The position numbers were made by a program, and so were the translations under genes. DNA of 64,000 bases, taken from Antedon mediterranea (lineage: Eukaryota > Animalia > Echinodermata). Every line of letters starts with the position of its first letter. The first letter of the stretch is position 1. The stretch lies in the NCBI RefSeq assembly GCF_964355755.1, contig NC_092673.1:14666948-14730947 (forward strand). Direction: 5' to 3'. Of the stretch, positions 4,566-64,000 are shown one piece after another. The notes beneath the pieces are model-generated. The model saw only the letters and a program-made list of their open reading frames with translations. It had not been told where the DNA came from and made no database searches.

Positions 4566-4566
4566 G

Positions 4567-8700: not shown

Positions 8701-8847
8701 GATCAAACTAATTCTACGGACCTAGTCAGGCAGCAACATCATACGACAGAGACGCACATTGCAATCGCACCGTCGCCACCCCGCCAAACTCGCTCTGGAC
8801 GACACGTACATTGGCCACAAAAATTCAATGAGCATGACTGTACCTGA
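5681..8847 (+). CDS. pol: Pol (protease, RT, RNase H, integrase); -1 frame relative to gag; one apparent 1-bp deletion near 7681
   Basis: FLVDTGAE protease, YIDD RT, DAS/TDHKPL RNase H, HHCC zinc finger, D..D..E integrase and GPF motif; ORFs 5651-7774 and 7711-8847 join as [17 protein letters not shown] if one G is restored. Confidence 0.92.
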
Positions 8848-35145: not shown

Positions 35146-35155
35146 CCAAAGTAAC

Positions 35156-41300: not shown

Positions 41301-41926
41301 TGAACAGTAATAAAATAGCTACTGGTTTCGTGCAATTGTATAGATGGGGAACTAGCTCAGATGGTAGAGCGCTCGTTTCGCATGTGAGGGGTGCCGGAAT
41401 CAATGCCCGTGTTCTCCAATAATGTTGGTTAAAGTTTGTTATCGGTATCGTTACATTTTTTTGATGAGATTTTAAACTACTGTATATATTTTATCACAGC
41501 AATACTGGTGACAATATGAAGATTAATAACATATCTACTGGTTTCGTGCAATTGTATATATGGGGAACTAGCTCAGATGGTAGAGCGCTCGCTTCGCATG
41601 TGAGAGGTACCGGGATCAATGCCCGGGTTCTTCAATAATGTTGGTTAAAGTTTATTTTCGGTATTGTTACATTTTTTTGCTGAGATTTTTACCTTCTATA
41701 TATATATTTTATCGCAACAATACTGGTGACAATATGAACAGTAATAAAATAGCTACTGGGTTCTTGTAAATTTACATACGGAGAACTAGCTTAGATGGTA
41801 GAGCGCTCACTTAAATAACAAAATAGCTACTGGATTCGTGTAAGTGTATAGATGGGGAACTAGCTGAGATGGTAGGGCGCTCGGTTTGCATGTGAGAGGT
41901 ACCGGGATCAATGCCCGGGTTCTCCA
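38337..41926 (+). tRNA. Tandem tRNA-Ala array, block 3 (17 genes + 1 truncated), continuation of block 2
   Basis: Same unit; truncated copy at ~41780-41812; last gene 41854-41926. Confidence 0.95.
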
Positions 41927-41933
41927 ATAATGT

Positions 41934-44900: not shown

Positions 44901-45901
44901 GATTGTATAACAATGAGGATTCAAAGTGGAAATGTCTGCCAAACACATATTTTAATAGAATAGGCCCAAAAGACATTATTGATAACATATCATATATTGA
45001 TAAGAAAAATGCTATTTTTAAAGCCATACCCGATTTCTATAAATCTATACTATGTATTTTAGTCAAACTTAATAGTGGTATGACTAAACGTCAATTATGT
45101 TATGATGATATATTGCATCAACAACTCTGGTATAACAAAATGATTTTATACAATGACATGTCAATATTTTTTAGAAACTGGATAAGGTCAGGTGTGCGAA
45201 ATATTAAGGATATTGTAATTGAGAATAGGTTCATTAACGCAAATGAATTACTTGATATGCTTAGGTATAAATCAAACTGGATTGCTGAATGGCAAATTGT
45301 ATTAAACGCAATTCCAAAAGAATGGAAAGAGAAAATCTTTTTAAGGGATAAAAACCAAAAGCACTCAAAAACAACACACGTTCGATGTTTGAATATGAGT
45401 AGCAAACAAATATGTTCTTTCTTTATTAAGGAAAAATGTCTAGAACCATCCAAAAGTAAAACAAAATGGGAAACATATTTTAACATGGAGAACGATTGGT
45501 CTGTAACATGGAAAAGAAAAATTAAAGATATTAAAAATAATAAACTTAAACAGTTGAACATCAAACTATTGCATTGTATAACACCTACCAAAAGAAGGCT
45601 GTTAAAATGGAAAATAAGCAACACAGATACTTGCCTACAATGCAACGTAGTAGAGGATGATGCCCATTTCTTTTATGAATGCACTGAAGTAAAACCCTTA
45701 TGGGAATATATTAACGTTTACACCATGCACAAATTTGGGATCGAGGCAAATTATCGAAACATTGTACTAGGTACAGGAAACAAATATGTAGACCACATGT
45801 TCTCTATTGGATGCTTCTGCGTTTACAAGGCACATACTTTGAAAAATGTAAACAAATGGAACTTGAAAAAACTTGTTTTGTTACTTGTTGTTACCAAGTA
45901 A
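41934..45901 (+). mobile_element. 5'-truncated Tx1/L1-group LINE abutting the tRNA array
   Basis: ORF1 tail (ends ~42149), then ORF2: SLNVRGL, QESH, GGDMN, RLDY, TDH, GPGLWKLN, RSRAKWVEEGEKNSKYF, NWRPITLLN, GIRQGCPLS, LADD, C-terminal CxxC..H..C. Confidence 0.92.
42238..45901 (+). pseudogene. Tx1 ORF2 (APE-RT-zinc finger) with frameshifts near 42815 and 44800
   Basis: ORFs 42238-42819, 42894-44813 and 44780-45901 are consecutive parts of one ORF2. Confidence 0.9.
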
Positions 45902-46078
45902 ATTTTGACTTGTCCGTATTTCAATACTTTTTTGCTTGCCAAGAATCGTAACATTCTTAACAAGAATCACACAAATTCTTATCAAGAAAATATTCTTACC
46001 AAGAAATAATACTTTAAGAACAATATTCTTCCAAGAATTTAATTGTTTTTTTCATTCTTGTTTTAAGCAGTATCTGTC

Positions 46079-47150
46079 TTAAAATAAAATTGCAATGTCC
46101 AACTTAATATGGTATGCAGCTCCAAAGTTGTTACCTCTCTTCTTCTTAATGCTGTTATCAAGATACTCATCGAATGTAACATGTATTTGTGTAGCATACT
46201 TTGATTGCCTAATGATGTATCTCAAAAAGGTGTCTGCCATGTGATGAAATGATGTATTTGCTGGAAATGAAGGTGGGAGTGACTGTACTACAGCGTGGCC
46301 ATCAAAGATGATTGCATCAGATGAAATTACTTCTATAGATGTTTCTGCTACCAATTCCTCTAATTTGTGCATGAAGTCTGATTTGAGACATGACACAATC
46401 GTGCCTTCCTCAGTAAAGATATTTAATGGAACAGGAGCATTTTCAAACATCATCACTCGCGCTCAAGTGGCACTTGCTTTCTTGAGTTAACTGCCATCAA
46501 CCGAAGATACATAATCTCGCCATCCATTGACACGGTTCTTTTAGAGGTTTTAACCTTGTTTCGCATATCTGCCATAGTTTTAATTTTGGATCTTGAGATA
46601 GCATCATATAGGCTTTTTCGTTCACCTTTCTGATTTCCAAATAGGCGTTCGCTATTAAAAAATGTATTGACCATTGAAGTACCTTTACTTAGTACATTAA
46701 CTAGACTTTCTTGGATTGCTGGGCTTGCAACTGCTCCTGTTGCGATATTAACTAACCTTTCTCTCTGGAGGATCTGAAAAATTAAATGGGTCAATGTAAG
46801 CTCCATCAAACATCTGAACAAGTTTTTGAACGTCATCATTCCTTGACAGTAACCAAATCTTGATTTGGTAACGCCACTCAATCTCAACACCATGTTGTGA
46901 TCTTGATGTCTTAAAGCAGCATTAAATACGGTACCTTAGTGTACATATTTGATTCACCTTTTGAATCAACCACTATCGACCATCCCGGTCGATGTTTGAT
47001 AGAACATCGTTCTCCACATATAAAACAGTAATTAAGCCAATCAAAATTAGCTTCATTGGTTGTTGTTGACCTAGTACAGTACTGCGTAATGTGGCTTCTT
47101 CATTCTCTACAATACGGTTCTTATCATATTCCTTGGATTTGCCTATCTGT
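46079..47150 (-). pseudogene. Academ-like DNA transposon protein fragment (XPG/PIN-like region), degenerate
   Basis: LVNIATGAVAS, E.APVPLNIF.EEG....KS.FMHKLE, IIFDGHAVVQ, IHVTFDEY...SIK motifs; family assignment from motif recall. Confidence 0.55.
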
Positions 47151-47225
47151 ATCCTCGTCAATCTCCTCGTGCTAAACTTGACGGAAGAGGCCTTTTGTCA
47201 CTACAGGGTGAAGTTAGACGAGTCG

Positions 47226-47741
47226 ATGATGAAGAACGTGATGGAGAAGAGCGCGTTCAAGAACATGACGGACAGAAAGAGCCTGATGTACGTAGACCGT
47301 GCCGCCAAAGACGTCTTCCAGACTCTGGATCTGCAAGCGCTCGCGGACAAGAACGGCGGCAGTTTGCCGGAACACACCTGCAAAAACCCTTACCTCCGGC
47401 AGACGTTGTGTAACCCGACGACGGAGGTGGTGGACAGCGATCGACTGAAGTTCAAGCGCAAGGAGCCGAATTTACTCACCGTCGAACGTTCGCACGCACG
47501 ATTGAGAAAAGCGTGGACCCAGATGCTGGCAAACGGGTCCGAGTACGAGATAAGACGAAAGCACGGTCACGATCGTAGCATCTACAATCGAGAAGTCAGG
47601 AAGATGCAGGAACGTATGATCAAGATCGACGAGACTTACGGCTTCTCTCCTCTCATCTACAATACAGGAGAAAAGAAGCTGTGGCCATGCACTTGTTCGT
47701 CGTCTCAGGAGAAAAATATAGAACCCTTTTTGTATCAATGA
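47226..47741 (+). CDS. Hypothetical protein, probably 5'-truncated at the island boundary
   Basis: Open frame from the junction (~47150), island-type codon usage, AATAAA at 47821. Confidence 0.6.
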   Translation: MMKNVMEKSAFKNMTDRKSLMYVDRAAKDVFQTLDLQALADKNGGSLPEHTCKNPYLRQTLCNPTTEVVDSDRLKFKRKEPNLLTVERSHARLRKAWTQMLANGSEYEIRRKHGHDRSIYNREVRKMQERMIKIDETYGFSPLIYNTGEKKLWPCTCSSSQEKNIEPFLYQ

Positions 47742-48104
47742 TGTGTAGCATTTTTTTTTTTTTTTTCTCTTTATTAAATTTGTAATTATTTTCAATGTGG
47801 TACATAATTATATTGATTGCAATAAAATTCGAAATACATAAACTCAAAATACATAAAACAAGTTTGTTTTTTTTTTGTTTTCTTCTTCCATTATCTTTTA
47901 TTTATTTATTTTTGTTGTTGTATATTTTAAATCCACTGTCTATACAGTGGTATACATAAAAAGGGTTGCTTTTAAAGCAAATGAAATAATAACAATAACG
48001 ATTATGACAGGTATACGAAGACAAGGGTGAAGATAACTGTGAAGATGATGATGATGATGATGATTAAAAAAAAATGTATAAATAAATAATTAAAAAAAAA
48101 GGAA

Positions 48105-50180
48105 TCATTCTCTCGGTGTAACGTTGCGTCGGTACGGTGAATTGTCACGTCTGCGTCTTCTCCTTACGGTAGGACCTGCCACCAGAACTTTCCTGTCTTC
48201 GTCGGACAGGAAGTGCTTCTCGTCGTAACCTGCAGTGAAATTTGCGTTCATAAAAAAAACCATTCTTTTCTGCAAAAACACCGTCTTTTCACGGGCGATT
48301 ATACGCTGGATAACGTCCATAGGAAAATACGGCCTGATGTCGGAAGGTTTGATTATTGTGAAACGCACTTCCAACCCCTCGCCGCCGCAACCGTCGTCGT
48401 CGTCATCATCATCATCGTAATCAGCGCCGCCGTGCGAGTACTGCGCAGGCAGTCGCGGCTCGTCGAACGGCCGAGGCAGATGACAGGGAAACGATCTCGA
48501 GGGCGGAAAATCGAATCCGTCTTCTCTGGAATCTTCGTCGGCGTCTGCAAATCGATTGGAAGGGTCGTCTCTTTCGAGAGCTAGCCGTTCTATGACTTTG
48601 ACGCAAGTTCCGTGGGATTGTAACGGACTTCGTACGAATTCCGTTTTCGGGTGGCACTTGAGCAGAGCCCTGGCGCACCGACGAAACAAAGCGAAACAAT
48701 CCGAAGATCGATTCCAGCTCACCGTCCCGTCGTCGTCCCCAGAACCGACCGTGACAACGTTTTCGAAATAAGTGACGCCTCTCTGCGATTCCGTCGGAGG
48801 CAATCGGTCGCTGCCGTCCAAATCTTTCCGATCGGTCGAAGCCAACACGATCGGGTAGGCGGAAAGACGGGTGACGAACCTCTCGTTCTGCTTGCTGGCC
48901 ACTTCGGCCGTAACACCCTCGAAAACGGAGGCGTGCATGTAAGGAATGCTGTGTCTCACGTGCTGTGTTACGCGAACGGATCTGTCGTACGCGTCGAACG
49001 CAGGCCTGAGCGATGCCATCTCGAGGCGTTGTTCTTCCGCGAACGAGAGTCCGACAACCGAAGACCTGAAGCGCACGGTTTTTGGATCGAAGTCGAAACG
49101 GACGAGTCTCGCAAGGTGGGAACCGAAGTTGGCAAGAGCGTACAGCAAATCGGGTTCGTTGCCAACCTCCGGCACCGCGTAAGAAAAGGCGATGGCGGGA
49201 TATGCGAGAGCGAACAGTTTCAAAGCTTCGTTCTGATCGCATCGCGGTCCCAGCGAAACGTGACCTTCGTGTTCCGGATCGGGAAATTGCGGAATCCACT
49301 TTCTGAGGTATTCCACGAAGCATCTTCTCCTGCTACCGTCGTCGATGCGCCTGGAAAGCCCTTCAAGAAAAGGGTCGACCCCTTCGAAAATCTTTCGAAA
49401 CGCTCGTTTTCGTCTCAGATAGAGGGGAGCCACAGACGACAGAAGGTCGATGTCGTCGAGTTCTACAACGTCGTGACCGTTGCGATATCCGTCTTCGCAA
49501 AGACTACGGACGACGGACTCGTAATCTTCGAACAGCAAAAGCCTTTTGCCGATCTCTTTGTAGAGGGTGACTCGTGATCTTGGCAGTCGTCGCAACTCCT
49601 GGTCTACGTCGAAACAAGCGCCTTCGACGGCGGCGTGGTTCTGCAGTCCCAAAGTTTTTGCCTCCGAGACGAACGTCTTACTACCCACCCTGTTACCGTC
49701 GTTGAGCACTCGACGAAGAAATTCTGCCACCGTCTCCTCGACTTTACGCGACGATGCGGCATCGCTTCGTCTTGCTTCGTTCAGGTAACTGTGCAACTTG
49801 GCAATTTCGAATGAATACGGAGTGCGCCGTCCGCTTGCGAACGATGCCGTCTCCCAAAGCAGAACGCCGAAAAGACTCAATCGCCCGTACGGTACGTGGC
49901 GACCCAGGAAGCTACGTGCTTTCGCCACAACGTAAGACGGAGATTCCGACAGCCAGTTGTACTGGTCGATTCTTTTGCTTTCCATGTGGAACCAGAAAGC
50001 TCTGGACTTGGCCAGGAGCAGTTTGTCGTCTACGTCGTAGTCGTCGTCGTCGTTCGGACGAGGGCGGGCGTCGCTTAGAAACGAAAGCAGTCGTTGCACT
50101 CTCGACGAATTTTTCACACCGGCCGACTTGAGGAGCTCAAACGACAACGCCAACAGGGCGACGTTCGGATCCGTCGTCAT
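48105..50180 (-). CDS. Hypothetical protein, 691 aa
   Basis: Long uninterrupted ORF ending at an AT-rich spacer; acidic tracts and basic C-terminus; no family recognised. Confidence 0.75.
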   Translation of the reverse strand: MTTDPNVALLALSFELLKSAGVKNSSRVQRLLSFLSDARPRPNDDDDYDVDDKLLLAKSRAFWFHMESKRIDQYNWLSESPSYVVAKARSFLGRHVPYGRLSLFGVLLWETASFASGRRTPYSFEIAKLHSYLNEARRSDAASSRKVEETVAEFLRRVLNDGNRVGSKTFVSEAKTLGLQNHAAVEGACFDVDQELRRLPRSRVTLYKEIGKRLLLFEDYESVVRSLCEDGYRNGHDVVELDDIDLLSSVAPLYLRRKRAFRKIFEGVDPFLEGLSRRIDDGSRRRCFVEYLRKWIPQFPDPEHEGHVSLGPRCDQNEALKLFALAYPAIAFSYAVPEVGNEPDLLYALANFGSHLARLVRFDFDPKTVRFRSSVVGLSFAEEQRLEMASLRPAFDAYDRSVRVTQHVRHSIPYMHASVFEGVTAEVASKQNERFVTRLSAYPIVLASTDRKDLDGSDRLPPTESQRGVTYFENVVTVGSGDDDGTVSWNRSSDCFALFRRCARALLKCHPKTEFVRSPLQSHGTCVKVIERLALERDDPSNRFADADEDSREDGFDFPPSRSFPCHLPRPFDEPRLPAQYSHGGADYDDDDDDDDGCGGEGLEVRFTIIKPSDIRPYFPMDVIQRIIAREKTVFLQKRMVFFMNANFTAGYDEKHFLSDEDRKVLVAGPTVRRRRRRDNSPYRRNVTPRE

Positions 50181-50839
50181 CGATCGGTGTGTCTGAAGTT
50201 TTCCGGCGCGATCGCATACGTGGCCTTTGCGACCGTCGCATCGTCTCGACTTTCTTCTACGCCGGTGGTACGTTTAACTTTGTGGTCGACGAAGACCGAC
50301 CGCAAAGTTTCCGCGACCGAAGCCGTCGATGGCCCCGTCGCATTCGGACCCGCCTCCGTCGTCGCCGCGGCAGTCGTTTTTGTCGGTTTCCGTCGTTTTT
50401 GCGAGAGGTCAACCTGCAGCGAAAGTTCGGGATCGGACCTGTTGAAAGTGTAACCGTCGTCGACGAAGTCGACCGTGTCCGAGCTCTCGTCGTAAGTCAT
50501 GCCTGTTTCGAAAAACATTCCGACTTCGTCTGGCCACTCGTACACGCGGGCCAGAGCCAAATTCGAATTACGATTGCGACTCGGTGCGACTGTGACTCCG
50601 TGTTCACCGAGAGGGTGAGGAGTAAACTTTCCAAAAACCACTTTCCATCCAGGTTTTCCGCTCATTTCTAATTTCATAGTGTCAGGAGTAACATCTAATG
50701 TGGGAAGCGGTGGACTCCAATCATCGTTCGTAGAGAAACGTTCAAGGATAACCCATTTACGTTCCGCCACAAGAGCTTCGTAAAGCGATTTGGGACTTTT
50801 CCTCGCCGAAACGTCTTGCCACCTGTAAATTCGGGACAT
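50177..50839 (-). CDS. Hypothetical protein, ~220 aa
   Basis: ATG at 50839 (MSRIYRWQ); stop overlaps the next start as ATGA at 50177-50180. Confidence 0.65.
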   Translation of the reverse strand: MSRIYRWQDVSARKSPKSLYEALVAERKWVILERFSTNDDWSPPLPTLDVTPDTMKLEMSGKPGWKVVFGKFTPHPLGEHGVTVAPSRNRNSNLALARVYEWPDEVGMFFETGMTYDESSDTVDFVDDGYTFNRSDPELSLQVDLSQKRRKPTKTTAAATTEAGPNATGPSTASVAETLRSVFVDHKVKRTTGVEESRDDATVAKATYAIAPENFRHTDR

Positions 50840-52556
50840 GGCTGCGGTTGAACCTACCGCCGCCGCACCTGGTGGCGTCGACGACACGTCGACGCAAATA
50901 ACCACGATACTTTTCGACAAGATGGACGAATCCGTCAGCAGATACGGGGCCTTCCGAGTGGACAAGAAGGGACGCTTCGGAAACGTCAAGTCCAGCAAGG
51001 AAGATGTGCGAGTGGTGAAAAAGACTTTGCTCCACTCGAATTCCGCCGGCGACACAAAGAAGCCTGATCCGACCGGCAACAAGGAGGCGATGATACTCGC
51101 TCACGCCAAGACGGTCGCCAACAACCGAAAGTACATGCCGCTTCTTATCGACGTGACGTTCCTGAAAGGCACGATACTTTCCATCAAGATGAGCAACGAA
51201 GGATGCGATCTGGAAACGTTGCGTTACGTGCACTGCATCGTCCCTTGTGTGACTTTGTTGACGTCAAACATTTGCGAAGCCGTCGTTTTTCTGAACAAGA
51301 TCGGCATCGTTCACAACAACATTACGCCGAGGAACGTGACGTACAACAGAACGGAACATCACTTCAAGCTCGTAGCCTTCGATTCAGCCGAGTTCGCCAA
51401 ATTGGGAGCGACCGAGCTCGGAATTGCAGTCGATACGAAGAAAGGCCATCGTGCCATCGGAAAAGTTCGAGCCGGTTCTTTTGCGTGGAAGTACGTTCCG
51501 GAGGGAACTCTCGTCTGCTTGTCGGACGTTCGTCCCATGTACTCCTGCGTCAGGAGTCGATCGAAGTTGTCGAAAGTTCCTTACAGGGACATAAGTCACG
51601 TCATGTCGGACAGGCCGTCGAAAATGCTCAACAGATTTTCGGACGTGTTCGGTGCAACGATGACCGTGGCCACGACGCTGTCCGAAGACAATCGATCGGT
51701 TTCGTCTTTGCCTCAGTTGGAATACTACGACGTTAATTGCGAGAGAGGCAGAGAGAGAGAGGGGGGCGACAACGACAAGATCGAGGACCTTGTCAAAATT
51801 TGCAGGCACCTGGTCGACACGAGAGGCCCGACGAGCGACGTCGAACTTTCGTTTTGGCGTAACTACATCAACCCGAACTCCGCGCTGAGCCGTGCGTTGC
51901 AAAGACCTCCGAAAACCAAGGCGTTTTTGGACAAATTTGAAAACATTTTGGGCGCTCAGTTGGTCGGCGCCTTGAAACAATGTTTGAGTCCCATGCCCGA
52001 ACACCGACGGTTTAGGGATCTGTGAGAAGTGGTGGGACAGAAGGGTAACTCTCAACCGAAACCGAGGAAAGTGGACTTGAAGAAACTGTCGGTGAAACGC
52101 GTTTCCGAAAAAACGGTCTACCTGTCGTACGACGCAGAAATCATTGTAGGCGGCATCAAGTTCGGCAACGAAAGCAAAAACGGGAACGTCGTGGTCGTGG
52201 AACACGTTTTTTCCATGATCGACGACAGACACGTGTATGCTTCGTTCGCAATGACGGCGATCAGGTTGTGCCAGTACATCAAAGCAAGAATCATGGACAT
52301 TCCGCTGTACAACGAGGACGAGCGGAGACGTCTGTCCGAAGTTTTCGGATCTTCCGCAACAAGGACTCCAGACGGGAAACGAATGCTGGTCACCGTTGAC
52401 GATGATGCCCAACTGTTGTCGTCGATTAAGGCGTACAAAAAAAAAACGGCAACAAAATCTCGATCGAAAACAGACGGTTTACTTGGCGAAACGGTCCCTG
52501 GCGGCGAACCGAAGCGAGCGCACTTGCAGTCGCCTCTGGCTGAAGAAAATTCATGA
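50838..52556 (+). CDS. Divergent Ser/Thr kinase-like protein 1 (likely pseudokinase), with in-frame TGA at 52023-52025
   Basis: GRFGNV, VVKK, HNNITPRN, LVAFDSA; ORF 52029-52556 is in the same frame and aligns with the C-terminal domain of kinase 2. Confidence 0.8.
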
Positions 52557-52601
52557 CAAACATTTTTTTATCTTCATTTCTTTCTAATTTCAAAAACAAC
52601 C

Positions 52602-54704
52602 ATGTCAAAGAATAAAAATAATAAGAAAAAAAGAAAAAATAAAACGAAAAAGCAACACGCTGAAAATGCATACGAATCATTTCCATGTTCTTTGTCGTCG
52701 TCGTCGTCGTCGTTGCCGCTACCCGACAAGATGTCGTCTCCGTTCGTGTTACCGTCTCCGAATCCCACGTCCCCGAATCCCATGTCCAGTTACGTAGCTC
52801 GGTTGGCATCTTACAAGAATTGGCCCATCCAGAACGCCGTATCATCGATCTCCTTGGCCCAATCCGGATTTTACTACACCGGCACGGATGACAGCGTCAA
52901 GTGCTTCTCCTGCACGAGCGGTCTTAAAAGATGGCAGGCAGGGGACGTCGCAGACGTCGTGCACGGAAAATTTTCTCCCACCTGCGAATTTTTGTCGCAG
53001 AAACTCGCGGAAGCAAACCGTAGCAGCACGGGCAGCAACGATGCCGTCGTGAAGAATAAAACAAAAAAGCAAAACGCTGAAAACGCACACGAACCATTTC
53101 CACGTTCTTCGACGTCGTCGCTACCCGACAAGATGTCGTCTCCGTCCGTGTTACCGTCTCCGCCTCCCACGTCCCCGCCTCCCATGTCCAGTTACGTTGC
53201 TCGGTTGGCATCTTACAAGAATTGGCCCATCCAGAACGTTGTGTCGTCGATCTCTTTGGCTCGTTCCGGATTTTACTACACCGGCACGGATGACCACGTC
53301 AAATGCTTCTCCTGCACGGGCGGTCTTAAAGGCTGGGAGGAAGGGGACGTCGCAGACGTCGAGCACGGAAAGTTCTACCGGACCTGCGAATTTTTGTCGC
53401 AGAAACGCAAGGAAGCAAACCGCAGCAGCACGATGCCGTCGTGACTCGGGTGGAGATCGCCAGCATGTCGTCATTGTGGAGCAGATTGGCAACCTACAAA
53501 AACTGGCCGGCAAAAAAAAAACGGCGTCGCGCCTTATAGTGCCATGGCTCGCTCCGGATTCTACTACACCGGAGTCGGCGACTGCGTTGAATGCTTCTGT
53601 TGCCGCGGTCAACTGAAAGGATTGAAATCTGGAGATAACGTGGAACAAGAACACGAGAGACTTTACCCGCACTGCGGCTACTTGCCGTCACGTCGCAACG
53701 CCTACCGGGTCGACGACGGCACCACGAACAAACAAACGTCGTCGTCGTCGTCGTCGTCGGTTCTAAAAATTTGCTACCCTAAATTCGCCGACTTGCACGA
53801 AAGACGACGGACATTTGCACGCTGGAAGATCCCTGCGGCAGGCAGAATTGCAGAAGCCGGGTTCTTCGCGATCGACGTCGAGGCGGGTCGTGCAGCGTGC
53901 TACAACTGTGCCGTCGTGCTGGACTTCCGGTCGACCGATGAAAGATGCGACCCGTTGTTCGAGCATGCAAGATTTTATCCGTTTTGCGACCTGTTGATTC
54001 AGACTAAAGGTACCGCCTACGTAGAGTACGTCAGAAATGCGACGGAGAGAGCGGTCGAGAAGAAATGTGACGTAAAGCCCGTTCCCGAGTTGTTTGAAGC
54101 ACTTTCGCTGCACGTCTCCTCCGAAGGCGCAAACAAAGTTCACTCGAGTGGTCTCTGCAAAATAGATGGGTGGAAAGAGAAGGAAAAAGAAGAAGATGAA
54201 GAAGAAGAAGAAGAGAAGAAAAAAGGAGACGTATGGAAAAACAAGACAACGTCTGCCATCACCGTCGCCTGTCTATTGGAAGAGGAGATGAAACGTAAAC
54301 CCATCCAGCAGGTCGTAGAGATGGGCTACACCATCGACACCGTGGAAAACGTTGTGCTGCAAAAATTGAAAGAAGGCAAACATTTCGATTCTGTCGTGCA
54401 GTTGTTCGACGCCGTGACGACCCAACTCGCTCAGAAAGAGGACGGCGAAAAAAGTGCGGAGGTAGTGGCAAAGCCGCCTGCCCACGCTTCCGACTCGAAA
54501 GATAAGAGCATCGTCGATTTACGTTCTAAGGTGACGCAACTTCTAGACCAACGTCTTTGCAAGGTGTGCATGGAACAGGATTCGAACGTTTGTTTTCTTC
54601 CCTGCGGTCACATTTCAGCCTGCGAATCTTGCGGCCGACAGCTTTCAGAGTGTCCGATCTGCAGAGGCGTTATCGACACACAAAAGAAAGTCTTTCTGGC
54701 TTGA
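52602..54704 (+). CDS. iap: Inhibitor of apoptosis (4 BIR + UBA-like + RING), split by indels near 53430 and 53515
   Basis: Four RL.S/TY..WP..A..GF..C..C..H..C repeats; PIQQVVEMGY UBA-like; LCKVCM..FLPCGH..C..C..CPICR RING; no introns. Confidence 0.92.
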
Positions 54705-54842
54705 ATCGAACAAAGAAACAGGATCGCCTCTTCTCTGCTTTTCGCCGTCGTTTGAAACGTATTAGCATTTTACAACACACGCGGAAGGGATTCAGTCGTT
54801 CATTCGTCTTCGGTGCTGGGAGGAAGCACAGTTCAAAAACCG

Positions 54843-54863
54843 CACACACACACACACACACAC
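54843..54863. repeat. (CA)n microsatellite
   Basis: About 10 CA units. Confidence 0.9.
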
Positions 54864-54886
54864 TCGAAAGGGTGAGGAAAAGCAAC

Positions 54887-57166
54887 ATGCAGTCAACCGA
54901 TCGTCAAACGAGATACGACGACGATTACCAACGGTACAAAATCGACCAGACAAGACGACACGTCGACGATCGAACGCCTCGAGAACACGATCGTCGAAGA
55001 AGAAGACACGTCGACGATTGAACGCGCCCCGAACACGATCGGAGAAGACGACACGGCGACCACGACGTTAAAAAGACGGAACACGATAGGCGAAGGTCGC
55101 TCCAGAACGAAAATCAGATAACAAGCCGCAGCAAAGGCAAAGCTCGGAGGACCGACGATCGTCGACGGGAACGCGACGGCAAAAATTGGACGGAGGAAGA
55201 ATGGCGAATGACATCCGGTCGACGCGGAGACGGTTCTACCGAGGAACGGCCAAAAAAAAAACTCGACGCGGGTGCGGCGACCACGAAGCGGACCCTGGAG
55301 AAGCGACGCACGTCGTCACATCCGACGACCGATTACGTCAGGCCCTCCAAGGAGTTCAAAACGTCGAACGTGCCGTCTCCTCTTCTCGTGTCGTCTCCTC
55401 TTCTTATGCCCCCTCCTCCGGTTCCGAAACCGAGGGCCGCCGCCGCCGACAGACAAAACGACATCGTAAAGACGATAAGTTACGCAAAATTGCCAAACGA
55501 ACCCTCCAGACGAGGCTTGTTCTTGGTGAACGACAAAGGCACGTTCGGGCAGGTCAAGTCTGTCGAAACCGAAGCGTCCTTGGTCGAAAAGAGACGTTTC
55601 AAAACATTCGATCTGCTCGACAGGCGTCAGAGCCTCACTTTCAACAAAGAGACAATGATTTTGGCGTACGCAAACGACAAGGTCTGCAACTCCAAACGGT
55701 ACGTGCCGACCATAACTCAAGCCACCATCGCAGACGGAGTGGTGCAGACCATACGCACGACGAACGAAGGGTGCGACTTGTTCACGCTGAGATTCAAGTT
55801 CGGCTTGCTGCCGTCCGTCAGAAGACTGTACAACCACATGAACGCTGGCATCAATCACCTGAGGAACATCGGAATAATGCACAACGACATAACGACGAAG
55901 AACGTGACGTACAACAGAGTCAAAGATCTGTACGTCCTGATAGATTTAGGTTCGGCCGAGTTCTGCGAGAGGAACGTCGAATCGCTGGGAATAGAATTGA
56001 CGGAAAAAGATTCCAAAAGTTTCGGAGGGATCGGAAAAGTTCGAAAAGGCTCCGCCGTTTCAAAGTACATTCCGCCCGACACCGAGATCTACATCATGGA
56101 CGCGGACCCTAAAATGGGCAGCGTAAGAAGTCCTTACAAACTCGTGACGACGTCTTCCAGAGACGTGAGCCACGTCATGACGGACAGGCCGATCAAGATG
56201 TTGTCGCCCAAGTCCGATCTCTACTCGGCTGCGATAACCGTGGCGGCCATGCTCGACACCGAAGCTGTGCGGCCGTTGAGGAACGTCGACTATTCGGACA
56301 TGCTCGTCGTGAACGCGGTCGGCGGCGACCATCTCGAACTTCGTGATGCGGCCGAGAAGAAAGTGCACATAATGCAGGTTCTTCTTGGCGCTTGTCGGCA
56401 GCTGGTGGAACTGAGAGGCGGCATGACGGAACAGGAGGCGACGTTCTGGTACACGTACATCAACTCGGATCCGAGGATCTGCAAAGCTCTCTCCTCGAAG
56501 CCGTCCGATCCCGTTTCCTTGTTGGATCGGTTCCGGAACGTGCTCGGCGAACGGTTCACGAACCGGCTGAGGAACAACCTGAACCCGATTCCGGAGAAGA
56601 GAAAGTTTTACGTCGATGACGTCGTCTACAAAGTCGATCAGAGGACCAGAGTCGAGTCGTTTGACAGTTTGGCGGTGGTGTTTTCCGCAAAAAACCTTGT
56701 TCACTTACTCTACAGAGAAGAGGGCATCGTGGTGGGAGACTTGAAAGTTCGACAGTTGCAGAACGAAAAAGGACAAGCGACGAAAATCGCCTTCGTCGAT
56801 CACGTGGAGCTCATGGTCGACGCACCCGATCTGCCGATGTCGTTCCTCGCATCGGCGCTCTATCTGCTGTCGTTATTCGCAGAAACGGTCGTGTTTGCCA
56901 CGTACAACGACCGGGAACGTCAGTCTCTGGCCTCCATGTTTTCGGAACATCGACGCACTTCCAACGGAGACGTGCTGGTGAAGGTGGACAACAGCATCCG
57001 GAGGATCCAGGTTCTGAAAAAAGGTGTGAAAAAACCATCCCGATTGCAACAGACGGCGAGGAAAAATACGATCCGTGCCATCTTTCAGGAAGTGTTAAAA
57101 CCGGAGGTGCGCCCGATTTCGCCCATACACTCGCCCCGGAAAGTAAAGGGCCCGGAACAATCATGA
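54887..57166 (+). CDS. Divergent Ser/Thr kinase 2 with R/D-rich N-terminal extension; in-frame TGA at 55019-55021
   Basis: GTFGQV, HNDITTKN, LIDLGSA, SDLYS; frame is open from ATG 54887 to 57166 except for one TGA. Confidence 0.85.
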
Positions 57167-57930
57167 CGTACACAACCGTTCAATCCAGTTGCAACAGAGC
57201 GTCGATGAACTTCTTCCTGGTGAACGTGGTGTCTTCGCAAAACATCGCGCATCGATATCCGTACGACACGCGCGAGACGGCGCAATCCATCCACATGAGA
57301 GGCACGAAATTGCAAGACGACATGATAGAATTTCAATCGCCTCTGAAAAGAGGATCGACCGCGCTGTATTTCGTTTCCACAGGATCGACGAACATCACGA
57401 CGAGGGGTAACTTCAACGTGAGAACGAAAACTTCGCTCAACTACCAACTGCAACAGGCGATAACTTGGAGAAAGTACAAGAGCGTACCTATGCACATTTC
57501 GACAAACAACCTGAACCATGCAGGTAGGATGTACGGCGTGCTGGACGATCCGTCTGATGTCGTCGAACGTCTTAAGCTTTTGGAATCTTTGACGGTCGAC
57601 AGCAACGATCTGTTTCCGTCGGTCAAGTTCACCATCCCGTACCACGTGGACGGACGAACGAGAAAGTTCCAGTTGTTTTCTCTTTCTCTTTGCTGCAACA
57701 CTCAGTTTCAGGCGGTCGCTTCTCTCAAGCAAACCGGTCGCACGTTCCTCGACATGATATTAAGGCACGTCGACAAATTCGATTCAGAACTGTCCCGAAA
57801 GTGCATTGCAGAGGAGCTGGATTGTGGCGAACCGTTGAACGATCGAAGGCTGCTGGAGATAAGTCCGTCGAACCGTCCGATCTGCTGCAAAAGGTCCGGT
57901 TGCAAACGCAAACGGTACGTCACAAAGTGA
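57163..57930 (+). CDS. Hypothetical protein, 255 aa
   Basis: Start overlaps kinase 2 stop (ATGA); basic Cys-rich C-terminus CCKRSGCKRKRY. Confidence 0.7.
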   Translation: MTYTTVQSSCNRASMNFFLVNVVSSQNIAHRYPYDTRETAQSIHMRGTKLQDDMIEFQSPLKRGSTALYFVSTGSTNITTRGNFNVRTKTSLNYQLQQAITWRKYKSVPMHISTNNLNHAGRMYGVLDDPSDVVERLKLLESLTVDSNDLFPSVKFTIPYHVDGRTRKFQLFSLSLCCNTQFQAVASLKQTGRTFLDMILRHVDKFDSELSRKCIAEELDCGEPLNDRRLLEISPSNRPICCKRSGCKRKRYVTK

Positions 57931-57972
57931 AAAACTTTTGTGTTTTTTTGTTTTTTGTTTTTTGTTGTTGTA

Positions 57973-58206
57973 ATGTCAGACTCTCCCGAAGAGTACTTAC
58001 CTGTGAAAAACATTAAGATCCAGAAATTGGACTTTAGAAACTCTTCTTTGTACATGAGAAGACGACCGATCAAGGTATTTCAGAACGTTGGAAATGTCGC
58101 TGAACCTGTCCAGAAGAAAGATTATTTTACAAGTAATAACGGACTAAGGAATCATACCGAAAAAGCTGGCGATTCTTTCCCGACGGAGAAAAACGACTCG
58201 AAATAG
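57973..58206 (+). CDS. Small hypothetical protein
   Basis: 77-aa ORF bounded by T-rich and A-rich spacers. Confidence 0.4.
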   Translation: MSDSPEEYLPVKNIKIQKLDFRNSSLYMRRRPIKVFQNVGNVAEPVQKKDYFTSNNGLRNHTEKAGDSFPTEKNDSK

Positions 58207-58371
58207 ACAGGGGCAAAAAAAAAAAAACATTTTAGAAAAACAACTATAACTGATTAAATAGTAAACATTTTACAGTATATTAATACAGAAATAGACTTGC
58301 AAGAAAAGAATAATATTTACAAAATTCACAGAAAAAAAGAAAAGAAAGGGGAAAAAAAAAACAACACAAGA

Positions 58372-58596
58372 ATGAGCACAAACATATACATTGAAATGCC
58401 GGTCTTCCACATGGAAAGGGTTCTGAAAGTGCTACGCCTTAAAAAAAAGCAACACAGCGGCAACGACGGCGATGCGGATGAAAAAAACAAAAAAGACTTG
58501 TGCGAAGTGATCGACAAAATAGAGAGATTGATAGATTGCAAAGCAGAAAGTGAAAATACTTTATCTTCTAAATTTAAGAAAATGATGGTCGTTTGA
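58372..58596 (+). CDS. Small hypothetical protein
   Basis: 74-aa ORF after an A-rich leader, AATAAA directly after the stop. Confidence 0.45.
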   Translation: MSTNIYIEMPVFHMERVLKVLRLKKKQHSGNDGDADEKNKKDLCEVIDKIERLIDCKAESENTLSSKFKKMMVV

Positions 58597-58692
58597 AATA
58601 AAAGGAAATTGAAATTTATATACATATATGTGTTTTTTATTTTTTTTCTTTTGTTGTTGTTGTTGTTGTTATGTTTCACAAGAATCTTTCTT

Positions 58693-59883
58693 ATGGACTT
58701 GTTCAAAGAGAGACCTGTGTTGAAGTTGGGATTGCCTCAACCTGCCGTGCAGGTCAGGTGGTCAAAGATAATGACAGTCGACCCTAGACATTTCAAGTCG
58801 TACGACTACGACGACTACGACGACGACGGCAGCGGCGGTGACAAGGGCAACGATTACGGAAGGCGTTATCTGACCGGTCGTCTCTGGTTGACCAGAATCA
58901 AAGATTACACAGACTACACGACGCTTTCCCGAACTCTGCAGTCTCTGGACAATTGGAGCGTGTTTGTGAGAAGCGGCAACCCCTCTCCAACGTTCCAGTG
59001 GTACTTCGACGGAAGGCGTTACGGATCCGACAACCCTTACTTCGAGCTTCTGATGAGAATATTGAGGCATCTGTGTCTGTCGTACAACAGATCGCTACCG
59101 TTGTGTCCGAAGAACGTCGCTTGCGCAGTCGAAACCTGCCTCGACAATTTGGCCAAGACGGAAGGTGGCGTAGGCAGAAGCGGCGTGCATTTGGGCCCGC
59201 CTCCGATGTTCGTCGGGCACGACAGACGACAGATCGGATGGCTTAACGCAGACTTCTTCTCTGCCCTTTTAACCCTGGAAACCTCGCAACGACTGATGGT
59301 AGGTCTGGCCGATAGATCTTCCCGTCTCGTTTTCGAAGGATTGCAAACGACAGAAAGCATCCTGAATTTCGAGTTGGCGGAAGTGGAATTCTTCGAATTT
59401 GTCGAGGACGTCGTGGAAGACGCAACGAACCCGTTGAGAGACTGGTGGGCGTACGGAAAATATTTCAATTCCGTCTCGGCCAAATTCGTCCGTCCTCTGA
59501 GGTTACTCACCGAGGTCAAAGAAAGACACACCGCTTTCACGACGGACTCGGACGTGTTCCTGCCAAGCGTTTGGAAACGGTTGAGAGCGACCGGGACCAC
59601 GTTGCCTTCTTGCATAACCGAATCGACCGTGTTGCACGAAACGGACAGGAAATGCAAGGAAAAGGTGATTTCGCTTTTTCTAGGAGAACACCTAGAGCCT
59701 GTCGAAGACGATCTCGCCGTAGACGAAAACAAGATAAGAAGGGAGAGGTTGAAACGATGCATGAACGACGAGATCGACGAACGACCACCCAAATTTCTCG
59801 ATTCGCCGTTTGTTTCAGGGAATCTACTGCTCGGCGTAAAAGATCTGGACGTGACCGTGATTTGCGGATGCGCAATACTTTGA
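58693..59883 (+). CDS. Hypothetical protein, ~396 aa
   Basis: ATG 58693 (MDLFKERP); GC-rich ORF exactly filling the gap between two AT-rich spacers. Confidence 0.75.
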   Translation: MDLFKERPVLKLGLPQPAVQVRWSKIMTVDPRHFKSYDYDDYDDDGSGGDKGNDYGRRYLTGRLWLTRIKDYTDYTTLSRTLQSLDNWSVFVRSGNPSPTFQWYFDGRRYGSDNPYFELLMRILRHLCLSYNRSLPLCPKNVACAVETCLDNLAKTEGGVGRSGVHLGPPPMFVGHDRRQIGWLNADFFSALLTLETSQRLMVGLADRSSRLVFEGLQTTESILNFELAEVEFFEFVEDVVEDATNPLRDWWAYGKYFNSVSAKFVRPLRLLTEVKERHTAFTTDSDVFLPSVWKRLRATGTTLPSCITESTVLHETDRKCKEKVISLFLGEHLEPVEDDLAVDENKIRRERLKRCMNDEIDERPPKFLDSPFVSGNLLLGVKDLDVTVICGCAIL

Positions 59884-60055
59884 CAAATTGACAAACAAAA
59901 GAATACAAAAAAAAACTGTTAAACAATATTTTTGGTTTTTTGTGTTTTTATTTCCTTCGACCATTTATTTATTTATTTTTTTTTCTTCTTCTTCTTTCGA
60001 AAGTAGACTTAAAACTATTTTTTTATTTATTTATTTTTTTTTTGGGGGGATTATT

Positions 60056-62161
60056 TTACGCTTCATCTTTTGCTGTGTAGTTCCATGCCTTTCCGCAGAA
60101 TCGGTGTGCGTCGCAACACAAAGCGTTTGTACATCTTACGATGAATAATCTCCTCTCCCCGTTTTCGGGATCTACGCTTCGAAAGACCGGTTCGTTTTTT
60201 CTAACCTGTCGCTCTTCTTCGGCGGTCGACACCTTCACCGTGGAACAGCAACTGCCACTGAACAAATTCCACCCTCCGCAGAGCTGCAGCTCCTTCCGGG
60301 GCAGGTGCGTCGGAATCTTTTCCAAAGTATCTTTGATCTCCTTCAACCGATGCAATATGCTCGTTCGGCAGTCCCCTGCTTCCGCGTTCCAAATGATTAC
60401 GCTCAAAACGTTGCTCTTGTCGAGTTGGCAAAATTTTTTCAGCTCTCGGATCAAGTGCTCGACTTCCACAGTCGGATGGATGCACGAATGCGACAGCGGA
60501 TGATAGAAAACGCCTCCGTGTTTCAGGTGGTAAGGCGTCTGTCTGTAGCATCCGAGGGCGGCGCAAATCTTTTTGAATCTGTGAGAGTTCGTCTCATGTT
60601 TGCCCTTTCGAACGACGTCCCGGACCTCGATCGCTTCGTCGTCCTTCAGTTCGTCGACGACTCGACAAAATTCTTTTACGCAACAGTCTACCGCCGTATT
60701 GCTGTCTCCGATCCTCAGGGCTATGTCGATCATGACCTGTTCCAGTCGAGACACGAATCTTTCGACGCCGGGCCTCGTCATCCCTGTGGTGCTCACCCTC
60801 CCGTCGGCATGGAGACACGCATACCTGTTCTTCTTGTCCGTCAGCAGCAAGCCGCGAAGCGTCTCCCTGTGTTTGAACCTTTGAAAGCTTCCTTCGCCCA
60901 AGACTCGGGTGAATTGCTCTTCCAGCTCCTGTCTCCCGCCTGGAACTATGTCCAAAAACAGCGAGTCGGTGTCGCCGTACAGCACCCGAGCACCGTTTTC
61001 TTCGGCGCAATTTTTTAGCGCGTTCAGTTGTTCCCTGCACTTTTCCGTCACGTGGTTGTAAAGGCTTTTCTTGCCAGACGTGCACAGACATCCGACGCAT
61101 GCATTGGCCGCTTGTTTGTACGCGGCGGAGTTCTGGGGAGTGATGTTTTTTCCTTCTCTGGCCGACACCAGTCTTTTCATGACGGACGGAAGCAGACCTT
61201 CTCGTACTTCGGCGTCGACGAAAGAGCCGTCTTCGAGAGCCGTCGACTCGTCCACGTTTTTGTCGATGATGAACCTCGGATAGCAAGACTGAAAGTCGTA
61301 CACGTCGACGTCTCTGTGAATGCCGGACACGGTGTCCAGCACCAGGCCACCTCTGCACGTTTCGTCTTCGTTGACGCTTCCTTTGGGCTTCGGGTCCGCA
61401 TTGCTCCTCGGAAACACCACACGCTGACGCTGCGCTTCTCTGCACAGCACCGACGAAAGGACGCCGGTCGACGATCCGTTGGAGAACTTTCCCACTATTC
61501 TGGACAAGTTCGTCTCGATTTCGACCAATTTTTTCGCTTCCACCTCCGACACGTAGCGTTCCAGCACGCAAACGTCGTCGTCTAGCTTTTTCGCCGACAA
61601 GCTCGCCGCTAGCTCGTGACAAGATTCGTAACCGACGTAATCGTAGACGGAGTCGTTGTCGCCGCCCGCCGGCGACCGTACGTGTTTCGAAGTGTCCAAG
61701 CACACGGGGAACCCGTCAACGGCAAGGGTTACCTCGCACACCCGACATCTGGCGACGATGCTGTCCTTGACCCGACCACCGTGATACACGAACACGTCGG
61801 CAGATTCGATCGACTTTGCGATTTCCGACAGCGTGTCGATCTCTGCATTTTCGCCGTGCAGTCTCTTTCCGTCGGACAGCATCGCCGAAATTATTTGACC
61901 GTTCACGTCCCACCTGAGAACTACGCACAACACCGACAGTCGCACCGGGTGAACGTTCTGTCGTTCCAAGTGGATCTGCTCGTCGTACGTCAAGCTTTCG
62001 ACGTTGCCGTCTTCGTCTTCGGAGTAACTGTGCCAAGCGCATCCGTGAACCCCGACCGCGCACTGAGCGTCCAGGTCGCCCACGGACGAGGGGAGGTTGC
62101 CGAAGAGGTTGTCGACCTTGATGCCGTTCCTTTCGTCGGTCGTGAGCCTCCTGTACTTCTT
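60056..62161 (-). CDS. polB: Family B DNA polymerase, compact and divergent (5' end probably on another exon)
   Basis: GGLVLD..YDFQSCYP (motif A), KQAANACVGCL (motif B), VLYGDTDSLF (motif C), LLLTDKKNRY; frame open from 62161 with no ATG at its start. Confidence 0.92.
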   Translation of the reverse strand, partial: KKYRRLTTDERNGIKVDNLFGNLPSSVGDLDAQCAVGVHGCAWHSYSEDEDGNVESLTYDEQIHLERQNVHPVRLSVLCVVLRWDVNGQIISAMLSDGKRLHGENAEIDTLSEIAKSIESADVFVYHGGRVKDSIVARCRVCEVTLAVDGFPVCLDTSKHVRSPAGGDNDSVYDYVGYESCHELAASLSAKKLDDDVCVLERYVSEVEAKKLVEIETNLSRIVGKFSNGSSTGVLSSVLCREAQRQRVVFPRSNADPKPKGSVNEDETCRGGLVLDTVSGIHRDVDVYDFQSCYPRFIIDKNVDESTALEDGSFVDAEVREGLLPSVMKRLVSAREGKNITPQNSAAYKQAANACVGCLCTSGKKSLYNHVTEKCREQLNALKNCAEENGARVLYGDTDSLFLDIVPGGRQELEEQFTRVLGEGSFQRFKHRETLRGLLLTDKKNRYACLHADGRVSTTGMTRPGVERFVSRLEQVMIDIALRIGDSNTAVDCCVKEFCRVVDELKDDEAIEVRDVVRKGKHETNSHRFKKICAALGCYRQTPYHLKHGGVFYHPLSHSCIHPTVEVEHLIRELKKFCQLDKSNVLSVIIWNAEAGDCRTSILHRLKEIKDTLEKIPTHLPRKELQLCGGWNLFSGSCCSTVKVSTAEEERQVRKNEPVFRSVDPENGERRLFIVRCTNALCCDAHRFCGKAWNYTAKDEA

Positions 62162-62342
62162 CTATACCAAAACATGATAACAAAAAAAAAAAAAAAAAAA
62201 AAAATGTATAATATGCGAGGAAAGCACGAACAACGCTGGACCTTCCTCAAGTTGGTTACGTTCTCTCAACCCCACGGCATTATATAGTAGGATTTAAATC
62301 TGTAGAATGTATAGAGTCTGGCCGAATAACAAGCATCCAAGA

Positions 62343-63710
62343 ATGGCAGGAGGACTACAAAAAAAACGAGCGAAACGTTGCAGAAAAACGAACGAAGCGA
62401 CGAAGATCGATCGTTGCCGTTTGTTTGAACTGCCAACCGAATTGCTGCTGCACATTTTCTCGTTCTTGGACAACACGTCGAAGTTACAGTTCGCCGATTC
62501 GAGTCCCTTCCTGGAGAAACTGTCGGGCGACTTGGAAATCGCCGCCACCGAGGCGACCGTCGAATTGTGCACACGTGAACGTGGTGGTGCGGCGGACGAG
62601 TTTTCTATCTACCGACCCGGAAACGTGAAGATGTGCGTTCACCGAAAGTTCAAACCGTTTCTCGAACTGCCTCAGATCTCGCTGCAGTTTCACTTGGCCA
62701 ACCTTGTGCTGAAGAACGTGCATTTTAGAAAGGGGACATTGCGTCGCATCTTGGAAGGGATTGTTGTTAACTTAGAGTATTTGGAATTGGACTCGTGCAC
62801 CGGCGACGTTTTCCACCCTTCCCCCGAACAACTCGTCCCGGAAGACGGCATACGATATTCGTCGATACATTTGAAAAACATGAACGTGCACTTGGACGAC
62901 GTTCTTGAAACCCTGCTTCCGGATGAGCGTGTCACCCAATACACCTTCTACGTGGTACTGACCGACTGCAAAGTGACGGAGAAAGATCACGAACAGAACG
63001 GTGTGCTGTTTATTACGTACGACGGACGCAGCCACCCGTCCGATGTCGGTCGTTACTTCAACCTTACCGCGGTCTCGTCCGTGTGGAAAGAAACCGAGCG
63101 GTTGAAGGTTCGCCCCTACAAAGCGGGAGGAAGAGACACGGTGTGCATGCACCGTGTCAACTTGATCAGTTTTCAGGCGGCCGTAGACCATTTCGCCGAA
63201 TCCTCGAACGAAACCTCCCTAGAACTTTCGTTCGACAGCTGCCTTGAGGAACGATTCGGCATGCTCGTGGGTATGCGGTTGGTGTGCTGGGAATCTTTGA
63301 CGACGTTGTTTCTGATATATTCGGTGGCGGAGGAAGACTTTCTTGGCGTTGTCATGTCGCACCACACGAACATAAACTCGATAACGTAAAAAAGTTCCTG
63401 CGGCGATCCTTTCGGCGAGGTGGACACGCATCCCAACACGGCACTGAGGCAATTGAACCTGATCGATATGGTCGTCGACGAGGCCGGCATGGTCAAATTC
63501 ATGACACCGTTCGTCGACGTCGTCAGGTTAAATTTAGAAATGTGCGTGTTCGACGAACGTCTTTTCGCAAAACTATTGCACGAGGCATCCGGCTATGGTT
63601 GGTTCGACTGCGAGTACGTCCGCGAGCCAGGCATGTTGGAACCCGTTGAGATGTTTCTTGAAACGGTCAAAGAAACCGATTTATTATGCAAAAAAATTAA
63701 AATAAAATGA
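62343..63710 (+). CDS. F-box protein with LRR-like region; in-frame TAA at 63387-63389
   Basis: LFELPTELLLHIFSFLD F-box; NLEYLELDSC-type repeats; ORF 63420-63710 continues in the same frame. Confidence 0.8.
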
Positions 63711-63874
63711 AAAACATATGTTTATAATGAATATTATTACGAGAAATGTAATCGGACCAAAAAAAAAAAAGAAATATAAAATAAAAACAAAATATTCTGT
63801 AATCAGTGATATTTATTCAAGAAAACAATTAATAAAAGAAAAAAGAAAAACCAAATGCATTCTATAAATTTTTG

Positions 63875-64000
63875 TCAATCATGATGACTTTGAAATATTA
63901 CAAATGTCTTCGTTTCATCGTCTTTGTCAGCTTCTTCACTCTTCTTTAGAAGGAACCTTTCGGAAATTCGAATGTCGTCCGGAATGTTAGATGGTGTGAA
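63875..64000 (-). CDS. 3' end of a further island gene, truncated by the window
   Basis: Open 41-codon frame FTPSNIPDDIRISERFLLKK...HHD* ending at an AT-rich convergent spacer. Confidence 0.45.
   Translation of the reverse strand, partial: FTPSNIPDDIRISERFLLKKSEEADKDDETKTFVIFQSHHD

Follow-up and report, generated by a model that had tools for sequence, protein, structure and literature searches.

Endogenous large DNA viruses are already known as a kind, and several described systems resemble the element reported here, a gene-dense island at positions 47151-64000 of a 64,000-nt stretch (hereafter the window) from the genome of the feather star Antedon mediterranea (NC_092673.1, positions 14,666,948 to 14,730,947). 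The nearest paper describes Herpesvirales-related regions with DNA polymerases embedded in a starfish genome (bioRxiv 10.1101/2025.04.19.649669). As far as the accessible text of that preprint goes, those regions and the island are alike in being embedded in an echinoderm genome and in having a DNA polymerase outside the named families. Its main text mentions neither crinoids nor Antedon or Anneissia, but the island may be identical to an element recorded there. Teratorn, a piggyBac-alloherpesvirus fusion of fish, is also a multicopy endogenous large-DNA-virus element according to the accessible parts of its descriptions (PMC5601938; PMC5822658), but the island has no match to a piggyBac transposase or a herpes hallmark gene and its polymerase is of a different type. 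Maverick/Polinton elements share with the island a multicopy, virus-like presence in animals and a family-B DNA polymerase (PolB) of their own, whereas the island PolB belongs to PF00136, is not protein-primed, and is accompanied by a large P-loop protein. Naldaviricetes (baculo-, nudi-, and nimaviruses) and iridoviruses have in common with the element an inhibitor of apoptosis (IAP), kinases, F-box/RING proteins, a nucleoside kinase, a nuclear stage, and a large helicase gene. To our knowledge, a compact PolB that lacks ExoI and has an altered motif B has no counterpart in either group. The literature searched, which left most subscription papers outside its scope, contained no account of this PolB group or of any large crinoid DNA virus.

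Here, the island is identified as a recent, multicopy, virus-like crinoid element with replication genes of an unplaced lineage. The explanation that we favor, with a probability of approximately 0.55, is that it represents a chromosomal copy, now decayed and rearranged, of a DNA virus that is present in many copies and belongs to an undescribed lineage recently active in feather stars. A broader proposal, on which we would place an even bet, is that the element belongs to an unrecognized group, at the rank of family or order, whose members are DNA viruses or virus-like replicons of animals. Such a group would be defined by a compact PolB without proofreading, a C-terminal cysteine cluster in that polymerase, and a head-to-head gene for a giant MCM-like AAA+ helicase; it would still be active in crinoids and integrate there repeatedly, and other hosts would harbor distant members.

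The island is distinct in composition and coding density. Its GC content is 0.501 and its observed/expected CpG ratio is 1.49, compared with 0.358 and 0.92 for positions 1-47150, and the CpG step is located at approximately 47100-47200. It contains 13 gene units; coding sequence accounts for 88% by the listed open reading frames (ORFs), or for 15,452 of the 16,850 bases when split genes are taken whole (range 88-92%). Three frames run for more than 700 codons without a stop (722, 714, and 701). In the control of 100 block-wise dinucleotide resamples, the longest frame averaged 254 codons and reached a maximum of 478, compared with 722 in the island. The large ORFs have a gene-like GC distribution by codon position (0.55-0.70 at third and 0.35-0.50 at second positions), introns are not visible, and the reading frames are uninterrupted. 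The compositional and coding island is real, and the dense, CpG-rich block of approximately 17 kb near 50% GC that had been described from sequence alone (hereafter the sequence-only reading) was borne out, with approximately 90% coding. That reading had also placed A/T spacers at convergent gene ends; they do occur there, but also between tandem genes. Spacer GC is 19-23% in seven of nine cases (34% and 48% in the other two), and 18 of the 24 AATAAA sites on both strands lie outside coding units. An exact copy in the protein database exists for one of 10 window ORFs, no Rfam match was found within 44000-64000, and phage and plasmid searches with element sequences returned nothing or matches at chance level. 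The features, from left to right, are as follows.

46079..47150, minus strand: DNA-transposon-like coding fragment of the host, in the left flank outside the element; minus frames reach the junction; AT-rich, CpG-poor, no Pfam match
47151..47741, plus strand: 3' end of a gene truncated by the left junction, approximately 196 codons; the full product would be a large P-loop protein, likely an AAA+ helicase
47742..48104, no strand: A/T spacer (22% GC) with convergent genes on either side and AATAAA on both strands
48105..50180, minus strand: orphan ORF of 691 aa, GC pattern of coding type
50177..50839, minus strand: orphan ORF of 220 aa, no family match in Pfam or NCBIfam, PHROG matches at chance level at most
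50838..52556, plus strand: kinase paralogue 1, likely a pseudokinase here; an in-frame stop at 52023-52025 cuts off the C-terminal part
52602..54704, plus strand: IAP gene with BIR repeats and a C-terminal RING, present here as two ORFs (52602-53444 and 53544-54704)
54887..57166, plus strand: kinase paralogue 2, a 652-aa ORF from 55208, with motifs GxFGxV, HND..N, and DLG
57163..57930, plus strand: orphan ORF of 255 aa, no family match
57973..58596, plus strand: two short, uncertain ORFs of 77 and 74 aa within A/T-rich sequence
58693..59883, plus strand: orphan ORF of 396 aa, no Pfam or NCBIfam match
59884..60055, no strand: A/T spacer (20% GC) with convergent genes on either side and a minus-strand AATAAA cluster
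60056..62161, minus strand: compact DNA polymerase of family B (DNA_pol_B, E 2e-14), with an open frame of 701 codons that lacks the 5' end in this copy
62307..63710, plus strand: F-box gene with a leucine-rich-like tail (F-box-like, E 2.5e-4, weak) and an in-frame stop at 63387
63900..64000, minus strand: 3' end of the next gene, running beyond the window; an open frame, its bin covered in sequencing runs X2, X5, X8, and X9

The gene kit named by the sequence-only reading (PolB, a kinase pair, an IAP, an F-box gene, and orphans) was largely recovered by Pfam, weakly for the kinases and the F-box, but the first ORF proved not to be an orphan (see below). Because the open minus-strand frame at 63900..64000 reaches the window edge, the element continues to the right.

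The window PolB retains motif A (DFQSCYP) and motif C (YGDTDS), as found in RNA/DNA-primed family-B polymerases, and the usual tyrosine of motif B is replaced (KQAANACVG). Across its clade, motif B reads NACVG, NACIG, or NSCIG (N[AS]C[IV]G), with NAYIG in one Anneissia copy. No clade member has an ExoI DxE pattern, and proofreading is predicted to have been lost. A C-terminal cysteine cluster was found only in the clade PolBs among 237 proteins compared. Members of the family have approximately 740-840 aa, including the distant matches P0068 (841 aa, on a 37.9-kb contig) and P0061 (815 aa, on a 39.8-kb contig). The only Pfam class matched was PF00136 (E 2e-14), and the protein-primed PF03175 was not matched in the window or in L001, the contig of P0068. 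By these motifs and matches, the PolB is neither protein-primed nor clearly of herpes type, and the earlier statement that the element is not a Polinton stands.

A search of 5.8 billion proteins gave 56 PolB matches, and the sole close one was P0001 (45% identical); the remaining 55 are 23-34% identical, and those with names are archaeal or bacterial. A profile search over 1.84 billion representatives gave two close clusters, one of which consists of five Anneissia japonica members on five contigs of 1.0-128 kb that are filed as Pol delta-like or Pol II-like. The window PolB, P0001, P0210, P0068, and P0061 form a clade with a support of 100/99 (IQ-TREE, 30 rows and 318 columns, a chosen subset that omits P0136 and others and whose outgroup labels come from motifs and a few database names) and of 93 (FastTree, 70 rows). 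P0136 joins this clade on a long branch in the FastTree run and is not counted as a member. This separate clade, together with the lack of any relative in eight scans of viral_contigs, agrees with the earlier view that the lineage is not assignable to a known family. Two 267-aa fragments from Logan and ENA contigs (P0058 and P0211) match the N-terminal half of the PolB family (E 4.5e-54) and are probably a further lineage of copies.

In profile comparisons with PDB, the family scored 91 bits against Pol delta, 90 against Pol alpha, 85 against archaeal PolB, 77 against Pol II, and 60 against herpes simplex virus (HSV) UL30. Judging from the accessible part of a description of Pol alpha, delta, and zeta and archaeal PolB (PMC7544198), the motif A/C core is common to these polymerases and ours, they include the best PDB matches, and the C-terminal cysteine region loosely recalls their CysA/CysB domain. 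The island PolB differs from them in its separate long-branched clade, its length of approximately 750-840 aa, and the replaced motif-B tyrosine. These comparisons bear on the notion that the island consists of clustered genes and retrocopies of the host (XIAP, Pol delta, and kinases), which we consider largely refuted and give hardly any credence. RefSeq uses the names "XIAP-like" and "DNA polymerase delta catalytic subunit-like," and Pol delta is the best PDB match of the family profile. However, the PolB lies far from alpha- and delta-like rows, is short, and has altered motifs; the dense packing and composition are unlike the host; and two of the genes recur together on an unrelated contig. 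Syntenic host orthologues, the finding that the sequence-only reading had named as contradicting it, have not come to light so far: no homologue of kinase 2, the longer of the pair, was found at E<=1e-3, and the PolB has close relatives that occur in several divergent copies and are not host Pol delta.

A deeply branching herpesvirus is a rather improbable source of the island. The embedded Herpesvirales-related regions with DNA polymerases in starfish (bioRxiv 10.1101/2025.04.19.649669, as far as its accessible text goes) lend this idea some weight, and a GC content higher than that of the host and nuclear-type gene signals are compatible with it. However, the score against HSV UL30, the reference on which this comparison rests, is below those of all the cellular PolBs listed above. 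The PolBs have 740-840 aa and no ExoI, compared with 1235 aa for HSV UL30, and no herpes hallmark was matched in the ORFs seen. In addition, the partner of the PolB is an AAA+-like P-loop protein, not a helicase of the UL5 type, which we take to be superfamily 1.

This partner was recognized through L001, a contig from a metagenome collection of which 17.5 of 37.9 kb were examined. Its gene blocks have a GC content of 0.56 and an observed/expected CpG ratio of 1.4, the same signature as the island, and it contains a PolB, a P-loop gene of 1467 aa, orphans, and genes that match a deoxynucleoside kinase (E 1e-21) and, weakly, C1q (E 0.025). The PolB and P-loop genes are adjacent and head-to-head. 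When all open frames of the window and L001 were compared, the two strong matches were the PolB and the first window ORF (E 1.5e-20). The latter (47151..47741) aligns over 160 aa with residues 1238-1394 of the L001 P-loop protein at 31% identity (E 1e-23; z-score 36 versus shuffles), which shows it to be a truncated piece of the large P-loop gene and not the orphan it had been called. The large P-loop protein is likely an AAA+ helicase; beyond Walker A, the remaining MCM motifs (Walker B and arginine finger) resemble those of MCM by eye. L001 is also broken up by AT-rich sequence that resembles host DNA and includes a fragment similar to a retrotransposon, presumably of the RTE type. L001 was the one locus given by one query in metagenome_contigs, another query gave none there, genome_contigs gave none with P0068, and no telomere-type repeat was found in the window or L001.

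The element exists in several copies and samples. At least three IAP copies are present in A. mediterranea on two chromosome-sized contigs (36.19 and 31.9 Mb), and the second IAP ORF is present in the protein database on the contig of 36,192,472 nt. Nine public sequencing runs, from four studies and with three organism codes, contain part of 46200-56000, and four of them (X2, X5, X8, and X9) were compared in detail. No RNA data set containing it was listed, which says nothing about expression. X2, X5, and X8 cover all 30 bins, with long contigs that differ by approximately 1-2% from the window (for example, 26/3647, 25/4152, and 48/2700; the runs come from three studies and two organism codes). 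X9 (share 0.09) provides short, shallow pieces only and is not counted as support. By a hand count, 12 of 26 coding differences fall at third codon positions (among 40 of the 635 differences, those listed). Run depths are summed over contigs and are not used as copy numbers. The element appears to be recent, because the long contigs obtained from other samples and organisms are approximately 98-99% identical to the window (a difference of approximately 1-2%); on the matter of age, the recent integration proposed earlier is upheld by these contigs.

The window copy is a decayed, rearranged fragment. There are stops in kinase 1, in the F-box gene, and in the region upstream of kinase 2; the IAP is split; gene ends are lost; and neither end of the element lies within the window. 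Since the copy is broken, we infer rather than observe that the element is large. At the left junction, a host transposon-like frame on the opposite strand, which we take to be Academ-like, runs up to the same point as the P-loop gene, and two coding regions are cut. Contig 10 of X5 matches from 47152 and has, upstream, 3,732 unlike letters at element depth, a length close to the 1,237 codons (3.7 kb) ahead of the match in the L001 P-loop gene. We infer that these letters are the missing 5' part of that gene. Given the helicase homology from 47151 and this agreement in length, the left junction breaks inside a gene and is not the end of the element. On the right, the contigs of X2, X5, and X8 depart from the window at 62158-62161 and P0001 has 61 additional N-terminal residues, from which it follows that the 5' end of the PolB is missing in the window copy. 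Just upstream of this break, on the PolB strand, 62162-62205 contains a long pyrimidine run ending in TAG that resembles a splice acceptor. A rearrangement is the simpler reading, because the contigs of three runs depart there. The two breakpoints hit the PolB and P-loop genes, which are neighbors in L001; as a speculation, this would fit a circular or tandem unit.

The left junction also raises the question of whether free or episomal virus DNA was misjoined into a host chromosome during assembly, to which we assign long odds. The junction cuts two coding regions without a terminal repeat and no spanning piece was seen among those listed; in X5, the element extends beyond the junction without a change in depth, and the adjoining flank bin is nearly uncovered (0.28). 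However, a replicating genome would be unlikely to have the damage of the window copy, namely several stops, one frame break, and missing gene ends. Divergent copies lie on two chromosome-sized contigs, five copies are present in a second crinoid assembly, and L001 is interrupted by the host-like DNA described above. Integration has indirect support from the chromosome-sized contigs and the decay, whereas the direct check, a sequence across the junction, gave none among the listed pieces.

Several observations weigh against an integrated virus as the explanation. None of the 32 pieces listed (1,765 further) spans 47151, and X2 may be the source sample of the assembly, which leaves X5 and X8 as the independent support. 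No match to a capsid, terminase, packaging ATPase, integrase, PIF, or RNA polymerase gene was found in the ORFs of the window and L001, which represent part of the element, and there is no relative in viral_contigs or IMG/VR. The helicase assignment of the L001 P-loop protein is weak (Pfam AAA_5, E 1e-3; MCM, E 0.09), the match to an archaeal MCM profile is limited to the Walker A region (hhalign 79%, best of 501 versus shuffles), and the single-sequence model of the helicase core is of low confidence (predicted local distance difference test, pLDDT, 38), as is the PolB structure prediction (pLDDT 32). The trees contain no named eukaryotic-virus polymerases, and the PolB is set apart from known virus families by its motifs, its size, and the PDB ranking. 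AATAAA sites in A/T spacers are partly expected from base composition alone. The ESM Atlas was blank for the 691-aa and 396-aa orphans, which shows neither novelty nor absence.

With the same scope, the ORFs had no Pfam match to the Maverick/Polinton set (rve integrase, A32-like ATPase, cysteine protease, and jelly-roll capsids), the Nucleocytoviricota set (double jelly-roll capsid, A32 ATPase, D5 primase-helicase, VLTF3, and RNA polymerase), or the Naldaviricetes set (PIF and lef-type RNA polymerase), and no match to the Herpesvirales set (terminase, portal, and HK97 capsid) was found. The sequence-only reading, which proposed an endogenous large DNA virus or giant element and pointed to capsid, terminase/ATPase, integrase, and PIF genes as those to look for, therefore holds in part: a foreign virus-like gene kit, a recent date, and an unassignable lineage are supported, but a capsid or packaging gene and a piece spanning the left junction were not seen, with neither end of the element in view. 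Another interpretation is a giant self-replicating transposon without a capsid, which would use its own PolB and helicase, carry host-manipulation genes as cargo, and spread within the genome. The absence of a structural gene in the 17 kb of the window and the 17.5 kb of L001, the many copies in crinoid assemblies, and the absence from viral_contigs are in line with it. On the other hand, no transposase or recombinase was seen either, four sizeable orphans could be structural proteins, and IAP, F-box, kinase, and deoxynucleoside kinase genes are accessory genes that large DNA viruses usually carry. We regard such a transposon as unlikely and retain the decayed viral copy as the preferred explanation.

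If the element is viral, replication may rely on the compact PolB, predicted to be without proofreading, and the P-loop protein of approximately 1,400 aa, likely an AAA+ helicase; no primase was identified among the element genes seen. Transcription is likely nuclear and dependent on RNA polymerase II of the host, because the genes are uninterrupted, TATA-like and AATAAA signals are present, and no RNA polymerase is in view; a nuclear life cycle would be consistent with this. The IAP may block apoptosis, the F-box protein may recruit the host SCF ubiquitin ligase and redirect ubiquitination, and the kinase pair may alter host signaling.

Pfam matches to the IAP are strong (BIR, E 1e-41 and 5e-20 in the two ORFs; RING, E 4e-13). 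The first two BIRs stem from a 402-nt internal duplication, and a homologue (P0218) spans parts of both window ORFs in one chain. The two kinases are related to each other (Smith-Waterman score 617, z-score 148), and the frame after the kinase 1 stop resembles the C-terminal region of kinase 2 (score 97, z-score 15). Pkinase matches are weak (E 4e-4 for kinase 2, and 0.02), and kinase 2 matches Bud32-type models at E ~1e-4. Kinase 1 reads HNN and AFD where kinase 2 keeps HND..N and DLG, and is likely inactive in this copy. The frame ahead of kinase 2 has an Arg/Asp-rich repeat region broken by a stop at 55019. The two bins over the F-box gene (62200-63400) have approximately twice the element depth in X5 (69-82 versus ~30-50) and X8 (198-334 versus ~107-150) but not in X2, and one X5 contig, after running beyond 64000, matches the window again over 72 nt at 62298; these are hints of tandem F-box paralogues or a duplicated block.

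The PolB clade is currently filed in RefSeq as host Pol delta. If our explanation is correct, the PolB and the large P-loop protein would be marker genes for a hidden lineage of animal DNA viruses, and the element would be a natural case of a large-genome replicase apparently without proofreading. It would also make it possible to study whether elements of this type pass from one species to another, and host annotations (XIAP-like and Pol delta-like) in echinoderm genomes would be corrected.

Among the orphans, the 691-aa ORF had no Pfam or NCBIfam match, no viral_contigs relative, and a PHROG match at chance level only. The 255-aa ORF (57163-57930), which by eye we had taken to resemble a TATA-binding protein, was rejected as such; it had no score against a 26-sequence archaeal profile of that protein, an hhalign probability of 0.2%, and no PDB match. 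Homology of the 396-aa ORF to an L001 orphan was likewise rejected (z-score 1.9). In L001, two small neighboring genes at 3853-4847 have signal-peptide-like starts, one matching C1q weakly (E 0.025), and by eye the pair resembles the TNF/C1q fold; they are possible immune mimics. A 757-aa ORF at 14452-16725 of L001, between host-like AT-rich stretches, has no family match and is presumably BTB/kelch-like by eye.

The part of the window to the left of approximately 47150 contains long interspersed nuclear elements (LINEs), a Gypsy element, and tandem repeats. A nearly intact Gypsy-type long terminal repeat retrotransposon is located at 4806-8847 (gag-like DUF7041, protease, reverse transcriptase, RNase H, and integrase). 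One LINE (33352-38151) has an ORF1 with an RNase H1 N-terminal (Cauli_VI) domain, and a second (42238-45901) encodes an endonuclease, a reverse transcriptase, and a zf-RVT domain. Between them, a tandem array at 40022-41933 consists of eight to nine copies of ~215-bp units, and G-skewed blocks similar to this array are found at 28000-33000.

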